The translations under genes and the position numbers were made by a program. Under the pieces are notes generated by a model that searched no databases, was not told the origin of the DNA, and saw only the letters and a list, made by a program, of their open reading frames with translations. Shown here piece after piece: positions 6,520-49,409 of a stretch of DNA of 62,133 bases. Position 1 is the stretch's first letter, and every line of letters starts with the position of its first letter. Origin of the DNA: a virus. Location of the stretch: the IMG/VR virus record IMGVR_UViG_3300046747_000361; one strand, given 5' to 3'.

Positions 6520-6594
6520 GGCACAGCAGGCAGGACTCGAACCTGCAACCTTCCGATTTGGAATCGGGCGCTCTACCAGTTGAGCTACTGCTAT
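6519..6594 (-). tRNA. tRNA-Trp (anticodon CCA), CCA end encoded
   Basis: Hand fold of the minus strand: acceptor AUAGCAG/CUGCUGU, D arm GCUC-AACUGGUA-GAGC, anticodon loop UUCCAAA, T arm GCAGG-UUCGAGU-CCUGC, discriminator G, CCA. Confidence 0.85.
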
Positions 6595-13115: not shown

Positions 13116-13490
13116 TCACTTGCTCACGCGATACTCGGTCGGATCCTCACCTGCACGCCAAGCGGCGCGAAGGTCGTAAGGTGACGCAGTGTCGTTGCGC
13201 CCCGTTGCAGCAAACCATTCTTGAAATGTCAGACCTTCCGCATTGGTCCGTGAATTCGCGCGTGGGAAGTTGAACACGAACACGGCATCGCCATTCGGCA
13301 AGACCCCCTCAACCAGTCCCGCGCCCGACCATTCGTGCTTGGCGCAGAATGCTTGCGCCGCTTCAAGCTTGGGATCGTGTGCGCCGTGATCGTAACTGAC
13401 AGTCATACTCGGCACACCTTCCGCACTCACGCGCAGACGTGAACCCTTAGTCTCACTCGGTCCGAAATACTTGACTACAATCGCCTTCAT
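13116..13490 (-). CDS. hypothetical protein (first gene downstream of hammerhead A)
   Basis: ORF track; GGAGTGAGGA Shine-Dalgarno upstream. Confidence 0.6.
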   Translation of the reverse strand: MKAIVVKYFGPSETKGSRLRVSAEGVPSMTVSYDHGAHDPKLEAAQAFCAKHEWSGAGLVEGVLPNGDAVFVFNFPRANSRTNAEGLTFQEWFAATGRNDTASPYDLRAAWRAGEDPTEYRVSK

Positions 13491-13509
13491 TGTGTCCTCA
13501 CTCCAGTTA

Positions 13510-13558
13510 GAACCATTGCCGTCCTAGCATTCGGCCTGCGTGGCCTCATCAGTGGCTC
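13510..13558 (-). ncRNA. hammerhead ribozyme, type I topology, variant copy A (U15.1-A16.1)
   Basis: Minus-strand RNA GAGCCA|CUGAUGA|GGCC-ACGCA-GGCC|GAA|U-GC(U)-AGGAC-(G)GC-A|A|UGGUUC. Confidence 0.6.
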
Positions 13559-14054
13559 ACAGTGACAGTTTCGACATAACATCCATGTCAGTCTGAAACG
13601 CGGCAAGCAGACGCGGCAGTCGTGCCTCTAGCCATGCCTTCAAGTCTTCACGCGACATGCTCCACAGCATCTCGATCGGGAAGTCATCCTCAAGCGCGCC
13701 AAGCACAATGGTGCTGGCCAGTGCGCTAGGTGCGAGTGCTCGATCTTCGGGCCTGCCATATTTTGCACGCCCATGGTACGAGTCGTGCCAGAAAAGCCCG
13801 TTAGCGACGTAGTGCATCGGTCCTTCAGTCGAGGTGAGATGCCAGCGCACGAACGGTGCTAGCTCTGGGAAATAGCGCGCGACCTGCTCATGTTGACAGC
13901 CTCCTGACAACCAGCCGCGCTCACTTACGCCCGGATGTTTGTACTCGTCCAAAGTCACCGAAAAGTGTGGGGCTTGGTCACCGATCTTGTGCAGTCCATA
14001 CGTCGCGTGTACATAGGTACCGTCAGTGGTTCTACGAAACTTGGTTGTTTTCAT
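13557..14054 (-). CDS. hypothetical protein
   Basis: ORF track. Its UGA stop lies inside hammerhead helix I. Confidence 0.6.
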   Translation of the reverse strand: MKTTKFRRTTDGTYVHATYGLHKIGDQAPHFSVTLDEYKHPGVSERGWLSGGCQHEQVARYFPELAPFVRWHLTSTEGPMHYVANGLFWHDSYHGRAKYGRPEDRALAPSALASTIVLGALEDDFPIEMLWSMSREDLKAWLEARLPRLLAAFQTDMDVMSKLSL

Positions 14055-14132
14055 GACTCTTACTCCTATATCTGTGAGACCTAATCGTCTCGCCTAGGCT
14101 CTCGAACTATCCCGAGAGCCATGGCGAACCGA

Positions 14133-14441
14133 CTAGACCGCTTTAGCTGGCCGCATTTTTACGTAGACACCCGGACCGTGAAACCGCCCAAAGTACATGC
14201 GACCGTCGATGCCCTTGGCGCGGAATGGGGTCAGCGTCGACGACAGCCAGCCGCCTGTCTTGAATGGCGTGCCTGTGCTGGTGATGGTTGCGAGCGTTTC
14301 CCCCATCCAAGTTGTGATGCGCTTGCCGTCCGAGCTCACGTATGCCGTGTACGGACCGGCCTCACGCGTGAGGAAATTGGCAACTTCCTGCTTGCTCGTT
14401 TCCTGATTCTTTGCGTCGATTTGTGCTTGAATTTCTGACAT
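14133..14441 (-). CDS. hypothetical protein
   Basis: ORF track. Confidence 0.55.
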   Translation of the reverse strand: MSEIQAQIDAKNQETSKQEVANFLTREAGPYTAYVSSDGKRITTWMGETLATITSTGTPFKTGGWLSSTLTPFRAKGIDGRMYFGRFHGPGVYVKMRPAKAV

Positions 14442-14452
14442 GGCTCAACCCT

Positions 14453-14644
14453 CTAGAACTGGTGTGCGAATGCTTCGTCCCAAGTCTTGTAAGCTGGCGA
14501 GACTTCGAGCCGCGTCATTTTCCGAAACTCGGACTTCGGAAACAGTCGCGACAGTTTCGTGATGGGTTGTTTGGCCTGTGCCTCAGTGACAACCAAGCCG
14601 GCAGTGTACTGATTGTCACCAATAAATCGGATCTTGTGGTACAT
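14453..14644 (-). CDS. hypothetical protein (63 aa, downstream of hammerhead B)
   Basis: Start reassigned to ATG 14644 (GGAGTGAGC ATG). The longer track ORF would read through the ribozyme. Confidence 0.55.
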   Translation of the reverse strand: MYHKIRFIGDNQYTAGLVVTEAQAKQPITKLSRLFPKSEFRKMTRLEVSPAYKTWDEAFAHQF

Positions 14645-14660
14645 GCTCACTCCGTTGTTA

Positions 14661-14711
14661 GAACCGTATGCCAATCCTGGCATTTCGCTGTTCCCAGCTC
14701 ATCAGCGGTTC
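14661..14711 (-). ncRNA. hammerhead ribozyme, type I topology, copy B
   Basis: GAACCG|CUGAUGA|GCUG-GGAA-CAGC|GAA|A-UGCC-AGGAUU-GGCA-U|A|CGGUUC; the full conserved core is present. Confidence 0.85.
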
Positions 14712-15090
14712 AGTAATCGCCCGTCATGTAGTTCGCAGTGCTCTCACGCTGTGCCTTAGGCAATCGCCGCTCCCAACGTTCGTACCAATCGCCCCACGTG
14801 GTGAAGTGAAACTGTGCGCCGCAATGGTCATAGAGCAGAGTCAAGCCATACGTGTCACCTGTGTTCACGTATGACGCGTGTAGTCGGTGACTGCCGGCGC
14901 CACGATCCTCTGCAAGCCGCTCGATTCCGTGCCCGTGTAGGATCTCATCGGCAATCGCCAGCTTGACGCTGATTTTGGACGCGCCGATGAGTATGGCGTG
15001 CAGATCTTCGAAATCGCGCTCTGGATGCTCGGACAAGTGGTCAATAATGTGTCCAACTTCCCGGCGCAGTCGTGCCTTACTGATCTTCAT
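14710..15090 (-). CDS. hypothetical protein
   Basis: ORF track. Confidence 0.6.
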   Translation of the reverse strand: MKISKARLRREVGHIIDHLSEHPERDFEDLHAILIGASKISVKLAIADEILHGHGIERLAEDRGAGSHRLHASYVNTGDTYGLTLLYDHCGAQFHFTTWGDWYERWERRLPKAQRESTANYMTGDY

Positions 15091-15145
15091 ATTCCTACCC
15101 TTTCACGCCCCTAAGCCCGTTCCAACTCTTGAGTAAGAGCTAGAT
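15091..15145 (-). repeat. structured leader element, family P copy 1
   Basis: Minus strand: nested hairpin followed by GGGCUUAGGGGCGUGAAAGGGUAGGAAU-AUG. Homologous to 16918..16970. Confidence 0.5.
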
Positions 15146-15160
15146 ACGGGCGATTAGGTG

Positions 15161-15430
15161 TTAGGCGATGCGTCCGACGTGGTTTGCTGTGATGGTGATA
15201 CGGTCGAACACGGATGCCTCGGGATCCTCGTTGTATTGCTCGACACCGTCGTCACCCGCTAGCCACTTCGCACCCGCGCGCGACCAGACGCAAGTGTCCA
15301 CGTTGACTGGCTTGCCTTGCATCGCAAGTAGCGTTGCGTGTGTCACCGCTGCGTCGAAGTGCTTGAAAACTTTGGCGCCATTGTTCGTGTCGACGTGAAA
15401 CTCAACATCCTTATGCGATTTGCGCGACAT
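15161..15430 (-). CDS. hypothetical protein (89 aa, downstream of hammerhead C)
   Basis: Start reassigned to ATG 15430 (GGAGUGUGAAU AUG). Confidence 0.55.
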   Translation of the reverse strand: MSRKSHKDVEFHVDTNNGAKVFKHFDAAVTHATLLAMQGKPVNVDTCVWSRAGAKWLAGDDGVEQYNEDPEASVFDRITITANHVGRIA

Positions 15431-15446
15431 ATTCACACTCCAGTTA

Positions 15447-15499
15447 GAACCATATGCGCGCTCCTGCGCATTTCGACCTTCCGGTCTCATCAGTGGTTC
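15447..15499 (-). ncRNA. hammerhead ribozyme, type I topology, copy C
   Basis: GAACCA|CUGAUGA|GACC-GGAA-GGUC|GAA|A-UGCGC-AGGAGC-GCGCA-U|A|UGGUUC; the full conserved core is present. Confidence 0.85.
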
Positions 15500-15758
15500 A
15501 GCGCGGTCCGTGGCCTGGCTTGCACTTGCTCATGTCCGAGCAAGACACGACTTCGCAGCGCAACTCATGTCCACACCGATTCTCACGGTTAGGCAACATG
15601 CGCACCGAAAACGACTTGAATAGCTCGTTATACTCGAGACCGAAGTCGTAGCCCGTCGCATCGGCTTTCTGTTGCGCCTCTGCTTTTGCGGCTGGATAGC
15701 GCTCTTGAAAGGCGGCGGTTTCGTAGGCTGGAACTGTTTTTTTTACTTTGCGTGCCAT
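15498..15758 (-). CDS. hypothetical protein
   Basis: ORF track. UGA stop inside hammerhead helix I. Confidence 0.6.
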   Translation of the reverse strand: MARKVKKTVPAYETAAFQERYPAAKAEAQQKADATGYDFGLEYNELFKSFSVRMLPNRENRCGHELRCEVVSCSDMSKCKPGHGPR

Positions 15759-49337: not shown

Positions 49338-49409
49338 TAGCGGGTGTTGGATTCGAACCAACGGCCTCTTGGTTATGAGCCAAGCGAGATGCCACTTCTC
49401 CAACCCGCA
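49338..49409 (-). tRNA. tRNA-Met/Ile2-type (anticodon CAT) with U1-U72 mismatch
   Basis: Hand fold: UGCGGGU-UG-GAGA-AGUGGCA-UCUC-G-CUUGG-CUCAUAA-CCAAG-AGGCC-GUUGG-UUCGAAU-CCAAC-ACCCGCU-A. No encoded CCA. Confidence 0.8.

Follow-up and report, generated by a model that had tools for sequence, protein, structure and literature searches.

Introduction

Hammerhead ribozymes of types I and II occur in prophages as clusters flanking single genes, and have been proposed to cut long phage transcripts into mRNAs of single-gene or operon length (Perreault et al. 2011; PMC3088659). Cleavage of such clustered hammerheads has been seen in vitro and, for one set, also in E. coli; a natural hammerhead variant carrying U15.1-A16.1 cleaves as well, less efficiently (PMC3088659). 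The term stop codon is absent from the text of that paper (PMC3088659). In chrysoviruses and fusariviruses, type-I hammerheads of the untranslated regions (UTRs) cut near the next start codon, and cleavage promotes downstream translation (bioRxiv 10.1101/2024.05.16.594327). The role of the thousands of bacterial and phage hammerheads is still open, a 2019 review asking for further work (PMC6765202). Here we describe three type-I hammerhead motifs, HH1, HH2 and HH3, which lie between small genes in a 62,133-nucleotide (nt) stretch of viral DNA, IMG/VR virus record IMGVR_UViG_3300046747_000361. The stretch, given as one strand 5' to 3', is referred to as the window.

In all three cases the stop codon of the preceding gene runs into the ribozyme. 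Our preferred reading, to which we give a probability of roughly 0.6, is that the three hammerheads are punctuation within a single polycistronic operon of small genes, read leftward, and that the stop overlap is a matter of tight packing.

Results

Three hammerhead motifs in one leftward operon

Between 13.1 and 17.6 kb of the window every gene is on the minus strand, in the form of small same-strand open reading frames (ORFs). The three hammerheads fall within 2 kb, in one orientation, and set apart blocks of two and three of these ORFs. Each occupies an intergenic gap of 65 to 67 nt, with one complete motif per gap; other gene pairs of the same operon overlap by 4 nt. The elements are given below in the direction of the operon. 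Covariance model scores refer to the model described in the next section, and L-numbers such as L068 are labels of contigs or loci compared with the window. The coordinates that an earlier note had assigned to these elements all check out, on the minus strand.

15498..15758, minus strand: ORF upstream of HH3, 86 amino acids (aa), UGA stop at 15500-15498; G15499 and A15498 are positions 1 and 2 of helix I
15499-15447 (to 15443 with the UAAC tail), minus strand: HH3, type I, 79 bits with the covariance model
15499-15494 pairing with 15452-15447, minus strand: HH3 helix I, GAACCA/UGGUUC, read from the sequence
15493-15487, minus strand: HH3 core CUGAUGA; helix II is GACC-GGAA-GGUC, and GAAA ends at 15471
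HH3 helix III, minus strand: UGCGC-AGGAGC-GCGCA, with U16.1 at 15454, A17 at 15453 and the predicted cut between 15453 and 15452
15446-15443, minus strand: HH3 UAAC tail
15431..15452, minus strand: 22-nt leader of the predicted HH3 3' product, comprising the helix I 3' strand, UAAC and the Shine-Dalgarno (SD) motif GGAG (15441-15438)
15161..15430, minus strand: ORF downstream of HH3, 89 aa, AUG at 15430; the same gene stands behind a hammerhead in L068
14710..15090, minus strand: ORF upstream of HH2, 126 aa, UGA stop at 14712-14710 overlapping helix I
14711-14661 (to 14657 with the UAAC tail), minus strand: HH2, type I, 75.3 bits with the covariance model, with a weak match to the Rfam family HH9
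HH2 parts, minus strand: helix I GAACCG/CGGUUC, core 14705-14699, helix II GCUG-GGAA-CAGC, helix III UGCCA-GGAU-UGGCA
HH2 cleavage site, minus strand: A17 at 14667, predicted cut between 14667 and 14666, UAAC tail at 14660-14657
14645..14666, minus strand: 22-nt leader of the predicted HH2 3' product, SD motif GGAG at 14653-14650
14453..14644, minus strand: ORF downstream of HH2, 63 aa, AUG at 14644; the same gene stands behind a different hammerhead version in L077
13557..14054, minus strand: ORF upstream of HH1, 165 aa, phrog_17696, UGA stop at 13559-13557 overlapping helix I
13558-13510 (to 13506 with the UAAC tail), minus strand: HH1, type I with a core variant, 48.6 bits with the covariance model
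HH1 parts, minus strand: helix I GAGCCA/UGGUUC, core 13552-13546, helix II GGCC-ACGCA-GGCC
HH1 3' part, minus strand: GAA, U15.1...A16.1, 3-bp helix III UGC-UAGGACG-GCA, A17 at 13516, predicted cut between 13516 and 13515
13491..13515, minus strand: 25-nt leader of the predicted HH1 3' product, SD motif GGAG at 13504-13501
13116..13490, minus strand: ORF downstream of HH1, 124 aa, phrog_3199, AUG at 13490

The layout common to the three motifs is an open 6-bp helix I, CUGAUGA, a 4-bp helix II hairpin, GAA(A), a capped helix III, A17 and the 3' strand of helix I. The helix II loop is GGAA in HH2 and HH3, and the 5-nt ACGCA in HH1. As the earlier note had it, and as the ORF ends show, helix I begins in all three copies with the G and A of the preceding UGA, and the AUG follows the predicted new 5' end by 22 to 25 nt: measured from the predicted cuts, the distances are 22, 22 and 25 nt for HH3, HH2 and HH1, with GGAG 5 to 10 nt ahead of the AUG in each leader.

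A terminator-like search of the window found no such site on the operon strand in the hammerhead gaps. Weak matches of 5-6 bp at 16667-16649 and 13294-13282 both lie within nearby ORFs, and the total of 10 matches, against 7.5 in shuffled sequences, is no excess. The sole strong site downstream of the operon, a GC-rich 20-bp stem followed by a T run at 10541-10495 on the minus strand, probably marks the operon end. The layout is thus of the kind that the earlier note had in mind when it suggested self-processing of a polycistronic mRNA: the hammerheads stand in a same-strand gene run, their gaps are free of terminator-like sites, and the predicted cut would free an SD leader. The idea itself is not new, having been put forward in PMC3088659.

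ORF and gene callers place the downstream start inside the ribozyme at window positions 15490 (the AUG of CUGAUGA) and 14683, and at position 1851 of L068 (an ATG in helix III). For the two window ORFs so affected, the true starts, each preceded by an SD, are 15430 and 14644. Hammerheads are in this way a source of start-codon misannotation.

Evidence that the motifs are genuine hammerheads

A structural descriptor run over both strands of the whole 62 kb matched exactly these three sites, where a mean of 0.02 matches per window is expected by chance (300 dinucleotide-preserving shuffles). Relatives of the window were sought by protein searches for homologues of the primase and the 165-aa protein, followed by contig look-ups, which yielded about 15 related metagenomic contigs. 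A covariance model was built from ten hammerhead copies; as MAFFT misaligned helix II loops of unequal length, length-consistent copies were used and all copies were then realigned to the model. The model finds 15 full hammerheads in six contigs (three in the window, two in L068, four in L069, three in L077, two in L080 and one in L083), all of them in the equivalent small-gene operon and on the operon strand.

CUGAUGA and GAA are present in the three window copies, and CUGA(U/C/G)GA with GAA in 15/15 copies of the clade; A17 occupies the cleavage position in every one of the 15, with the 3' strand of helix I next. All 14 modelled pairs are 100% paired over 10 distinct copies, with changes on both sides at six pairs, whereas sliding the partner by 1-3 columns leaves only 18-38% paired. 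Compensatory change supports all three helices. For HH2 and HH3 the minimum free energy (MFE) fold in context is the hammerhead. Altogether, as judged from sequence, the window elements are genuine type-I hammerhead motifs, self-cleavage itself being predicted. They belong to a phage hammerhead kind already known, and the locus adds no new kind.

Several observations weigh against this interpretation. At gathering score none of the Rfam hammerhead families (Hammerhead_1, _3, _II, HH9, HH10) is found: the best match in the window is that of HH2 to HH9, with 16.4 bits against a threshold of 52 (E=2.6), and in L069 Hammerhead_3 reaches 24.9 bits against 48.5. The A15.1-U16.1 pair of HH2 and HH3 is replaced in HH1, and in five copies of relatives that include the HH1 orthologues, by U15.1-A16.1; the HH1 core is thus of the weakly active type, without the canonical pair. 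The MFE fold of HH1 in context differs from the hammerhead. Furthermore, copies inside one genome are paralogues, partly homogenised, and the 15 copies do not amount to 15 independent events. HH1 is probably the slower and weakest cutter of the three, by prediction.

Taken to the extreme, the low Rfam scores, the HH1 core variant and an A10.1-C11.1 mismatch in the L077 orthologue of HH1 would describe motifs that are inactive, decaying or hammerhead-like by chance. We give this explanation hardly any credence in view of the three descriptor matches against 0.02 expected, the covariation, and a placement between genes that is kept in six contigs.

Position of the upstream stop codon in the clade

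Stop positions, like the motifs, their covariation and their distribution over the clade, can be observed directly. The stop position was taken as the end of the upstream ORF relative to helix I and was located for all 15 copies of the clade, with the following outcome.

Stop at -1 (the window type, a U directly preceding helix I and GA as helix I positions 1 and 2): 9/15 copies
Stop at +7 (the core CUGA supplies the UGA and the helix I 5' strand is still coding, in accord with gene calls): 3/15 copies
Stop at -4 (UAA ending 1 nt before helix I): 1/15
Stop at -6 (UGA ending 3 nt before helix I): 1/15
Stop at -39 (UAG 36 nt upstream): 1/15

The genes upstream of these hammerheads are mutually unrelated. 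In four of the six copies whose stop lies elsewhere than -1, base -1 is C, which indicates that the U at -1 serves the stop and not the ribozyme. The conserved feature is therefore that the ORF ends where the ribozyme begins or slightly within it, not a specific coupling of UGA to helix I. For the earlier note this outcome cuts both ways. The overlap it had pointed out is retained in related phages, the ORF ending at or inside the ribozyme 5' edge in 12/15 copies, so that the lack of conservation that would have told against the note was not observed; a coupling specific to UGA and helix I does not stand, since relatives also stop at the core UGA or 1, 3 or 36 nt upstream.

Stop codons in unrelated phage hammerheads

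An independent sample was drawn from IMG/VR with a pattern for one common helix II, and 125 distinct type-I hammerheads from 87 loci were parsed; 24 of these loci hold two to seven hammerheads. Stop classes were counted on the 99 hammerheads preceded by an ORF of 60 codons or more, by an ORF assignment that is crude:

Stop overlapping the first bases of helix I: 11/99
Stop inside helix I: 9/99
Stop formed by the core UGA: 16/99
Stop deeper within the ribozyme: 9/99
Stop abutting the ribozyme with zero gap: 13/99
Stop 1-10 nt upstream: 17/99
Stop more than 10 nt upstream: 24/99

All inside-classes together, the stop lies inside the ribozyme in 45 of the 99. A stricter recount, allowing the stop to reach +14 from C3 at most and using random CTGA sites as control anchors, left 43/99 inside. 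A further point on the debit side is that the core-UGA class carries an artefact of ORF assignment, 13.4% at control CTGA sites; with 16% in the hammerheads, an enrichment of core-UGA stops was rejected. Minus this class, the inside fraction is 27%, versus 6.7% at control anchors, and abutting stops account for 13% versus 0.5%. A stop in or against helix I is thus common among phage type-I hammerheads and is not special to this genome or clade. No publication describing the overlap as common in these ribozymes was found in a literature coverage that is incomplete.

The median distance from the cut to the next start in the sample is 25 nt. On some of the unrelated IMG/VR contigs, type-I hammerheads are densely clustered between small genes, with seven copies in L102 and four each in L099 and L211. 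A clean hammerhead at 8401-8453 of L065 was a chance find.

The UAAC tail and the Shine-Dalgarno leader

The tetranucleotide UAAC directly follows the helix I 3' strand in all window copies. The earlier note had taken UAAC and GGAG together as one conserved leader; both are indeed present in all three leaders, but the first is likely to be part of the ribozyme. Among unrelated phage hammerheads whose helix I has 6 bp, a UAA tail goes with a 4-nt loop II in 11/11 cases, mostly of NNAA type; in the same sample 50 loops II of five nt have zero UAA tails, an AA tail being preferred. The HH9 consensus likewise retains UA after helix I. This co-occurrence leads us to read UAAC as the partner of loop II, and hence most likely as belonging to a tertiary contact of the ribozyme rather than to the ribosome-binding leader. 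Counting against this, it is from the co-occurrence that the contact between stem I and stem II, or loop II and tail, is deduced, and a test for such a contact found no pseudoknot.

The MFE folds of HH2 and HH3 hinted that helix I, extended by the end of the upstream ORF, might mask the SD. This candidate was rejected: the last 12 nt of the upstream ORF pair with the leader at a mean duplex energy of -4.45 kcal/mol, no better than random coding 12-mers (-5.37 kcal/mol). Since pairing of the SD with the end of the upstream ORF does not exceed chance, the unmasking logic described below for type C modules does not apply to the hammerheads.

Predicted processing and its relation to translation

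Each gap constitutes a full cassette, with stop codon, ribozyme, UAAC tail, SD site and start codon in succession. Type-I hammerheads cut 3' of position 17, leaving a 2',3'-cyclic phosphate and a 5'-OH. In the window the cut is predicted after A17, directly 5' of the helix I 3' strand, and the type I topology places it some 45 nt downstream of the stop codon. The upstream product would keep its stop codon, together with about 45 nt that include the helix II and III hairpins, and would end in a 2',3'-cyclic phosphate; retention of the stop codon means that ribosomes could finish normally. The downstream product would carry a 5'-OH and a leader of 22-25 nt with a free SD. We infer cleavage, the fate of these products and any effect of translation on cutting.

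When the stop codon is in the A site, the mRNA channel of the ribosome, which has helicase activity, covers the 5' strand of helix I and part of the core. From this geometry a terminating ribosome must melt helix I. Upstream translation and ribozyme folding would then be mutually exclusive at any instant, and folding and cutting would be possible only before the first ribosome or between ribosomes.

The earlier note went one step further and envisaged translation-gated processing, in which the stop in helix I lets upstream ribosome traffic time the folding, so that separation of the cistrons and stability or translation of the downstream mRNA come to depend on it. That a ribosome with UGA in its A site covers the whole helix I 5' strand, that 12/15 clade copies, standing behind unrelated genes, have the stop in their first 10 nt, and that stops overlapping or abutting helix I are enriched over control anchors in unrelated phages all agree with such gating. 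Still, we think it unlikely: the stop position varies (-1, +7, -4, -6, -39), the stop is more than 10 nt upstream in one clade copy and in 24/99 IMG/VR copies, the operon is tightly packed throughout, and, as the end of the upstream ORF leaves the SD unmasked, there is no sign of an unmasking logic. Regulation of cleavage by the terminating ribosome is purely conjectural, offered as a testable hypothesis.

Packing accounts for the same facts with less. The tight, 4-nt packing of the operon and the frequency of the overlap elsewhere make compaction sufficient to explain the position of the stop, and packing is favoured as the more economical of the readings by the variability of this position, by the tightness of the operon and by the general occurrence of the overlap in phages. 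The overlap with helix I would represent the tightest form of a packing rule followed by phage type-I hammerheads and by the other modules of the operon.

Other intergenic modules of the operon

Nearly every other gap, in the operon of the window and in those of its relatives, holds another repeated structured module, and these modules likewise begin at or on the stop codon. Two of the types are the following.

16310-16263, 16063-16007 and 15828-15758, minus strand: type C module, with 15 more copies in L068, L077, L078, L080, L083, L085, L087 and L090
13116-13030, with a variant at 12707-12519, minus strand: type B module, found also in L068, L069, L072, L074, L075, L083, L085, L087 and L090

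Pairing in the closing helix of type C, CUCU(G/A)U / A(C/U)AGGG, amounts to 97%, and six sequences show a double change from GC to AU. The 5' strand of this helix ends in the U of a UAG, the real stop in 7/18 copies, and the 3' strand overlaps the downstream SD; from this layout type C looks like a translational-coupling or unmasking device. Type B consists of CGACACUG, a variable hairpin and then CGUGUGUGGCAC, forming a long hairpin with eight covarying pairs that holds neither stop nor SD. By analogy, type B could be a candidate RNase III-type site.

Behind the orthologous 165-aa gene there is a hammerhead in the window, L068 and L077, and a type B module in L069, L072, L074 and L075. Since hammerhead and type B swap at one slot, the modules appear interchangeable, which suggests a putative shared role such as transcript processing or stabilisation. 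Types D and F, a hairpin followed by a purine-rich ribosome-binding site (RBS) region, are conserved in relatives; they lie at 15161-15090, 14133-14054 and about 16960-16880 of the window (minus strand), at 2150-2223 of L068 and at 16314-16244 and 15277-15198 of L080. As known ribozyme classes, types B, C, D and E were rejected, with zero Rfam matches even at E up to 5-10.

Some of these modules resemble the hammerheads in their loops, UAGGAUU and AUGGAUG loops akin to those of hammerhead helix III capping module hairpins. In the clade, GGA (usually AGGA) is present in the helix III loop of 14/15 copies, as compared with 9/125 unrelated phage hammerheads; the GGA-bearing loops of the window, all on the minus strand, are the following.

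15465-15460, minus strand: GGA-bearing helix III loop (HH3)
14677-14674, minus strand: GGA-bearing helix III loop (HH2)
13526-13520, minus strand: GGA-bearing helix III loop (HH1)

The loop of type E, GCAUGGAUGUAC, resembles the CsrA binding consensus. Helix III and the similar module hairpins might on these grounds be candidate sites for a CsrA/Rsm-type or phage RNA-binding protein, in which case the cut would part the site from the SD. The clade-specific GGA loop, the recurrence of UAGGA/AUGGAU loops in other modules and the likeness to the consensus speak for regulator binding, but we judge it highly improbable: the host is not assigned, a search of the window for a CsrA homologue found none, and common ancestry of the modules would explain GGA-rich loops equally.

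Distribution and possible mobility of the cassettes

The window is phage-like in content, with portal, helicases, a VapE-like primase, a serine integrase and two tRNAs, and the genome is temperate-phage-like. Its tRNA genes lie at 6522-6594 and 49338-49409 on the minus strand (Rfam 64.9 and 62.7 bits), and L068 and L072 each have a similar tRNA. No close relatives were found in INPHARED (DNA, protein), IMG/VR (protein) or GTDB genomes (DNA pattern, primase profile), which is why no host was assigned. A metagenome scan gave just two useful loci, and the 67 loci returned from IMG/VR by a family-specific DNA pattern were all chance matches by the structural descriptor. Relatives with a primase at most 71% identical have zero hammerheads by the covariance model, and in more distant relatives the same intergenic slots are filled by other structured hairpin modules.

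Within genomes, three copies of L069 (1783-1838, 2174-2229 and 2514-2569) are 96-100% identical and two of L077 (10002-9946 and 8879-8823) are 98% identical, yet their neighbours are unrelated genes. The three copies of the window are 68-72% identical to each other. The primase of L077 is 100% identical to that of the window, but the set of flanked genes differs. Near-identity within genomes and the change of flanked genes suggest recent duplication, gene conversion or cassette shuffling at hammerheads.

These patterns raise the question of whether the cassette, and especially the GGUUCUAAC block, could be mainly a homologous recombination site that shuffles small genes among related phages, ribozyme activity being secondary or additional. 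GGUUCUAAC is invariant across 15/15 copies, and the same downstream gene stands behind different hammerhead versions in the window versus L068 or L077, as would be expected from such shuffling along with the near-identical copies beside unrelated genes and the gene exchange around an identical primase. We nevertheless hold recombination as the main role to be improbable, since the RNA fold is under selection, as the compensatory changes in each of the three helices and the intact core show, and the window copies are too dissimilar to be other than a poor recombination substrate. The cassettes may also act as recombination joints while serving, as we prefer to think, as punctuation of a tightly packed operon.

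Discussion

The data above describe a leftward operon of small genes into which three type-I hammerheads are fitted with almost no spare sequence. In a broader proposal, phage type-I hammerheads would in general be built with the stop in or against helix I so as to sense ribosome traffic: the ribozyme would fold only in gaps between terminating ribosomes, upstream translation would set cistron separation and downstream mRNA stability or translation, and the clade hammerhead would be one of several interchangeable GGA-loop punctuation modules, of which type C couples termination to SD unmasking. We regard this proposal, taken as a whole, as distinctly unlikely.

The locus is a clean natural test bed, with three ribozymes in one operon and relatives in which the same genes follow other hammerhead versions or hairpin modules that are not ribozymes. 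The IMG/VR sample suggests that in about four in ten phage type-I hammerheads, the core-UGA class left aside, the upstream stop overlaps or abuts helix I. If this figure holds with proper gene calls, models of their function must take in the ribosome.

As in the clusters of Perreault et al., several same-strand hammerheads stand between small phage genes, and the U15.1-A16.1 variant occurs in both; the window copies differ in falling below the Rfam thresholds and in the clade-specific AGGA loop on helix III. With the type-I family HH9 they share the topology, the 6-bp helix I, the 4-bp helix II and U-A directly after the helix I 3' strand, but the score of 16.4 bits is far from the gathering value of 52 and the loop II sequence differs (GGAA/UGAA). 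In the chrysovirus and fusarivirus case, too, a type-I hammerhead fills the entire intergenic region (66 nt there). Those are eukaryotic RNA viruses, however, with cap-independent initiation and no SD, and the cut is 7 nt from the start, versus 22-25 nt here.

The early polycistronic mRNA of phage T7 is cut at RNase III sites, long irregular hairpins that are substrates of a host protein enzyme. The parallel lies in structured intergenic elements that cut early polycistronic RNA into single-gene mRNAs and protect the upstream product with a hairpin at its 3' end, as predicted here; the difference is that here the RNA would cut itself. In appearance, the type B hairpins seem nearer to the T7 kind than the hammerheads are. 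RiboJ, a synthetic insulator, combines a type-III satellite hammerhead with an added hairpin. Self-cleavage just 5' of the RBS, giving a defined 5'-OH leader independent of upstream context, would be common to RiboJ and to the window elements, but RiboJ is engineered, is of type III and has no overlap with an upstream ORF. Finally, in classical translational coupling the terminating ribosome opens a helix and unmasks an RBS. The hammerhead stop does sit in a helix that the terminating ribosome must open, and type C would fit the classical scheme; in the hammerheads, unlike in that scheme, the 3' strand of helix I is not the SD, and the SD has no above-chance pairing to the end of the upstream ORF.

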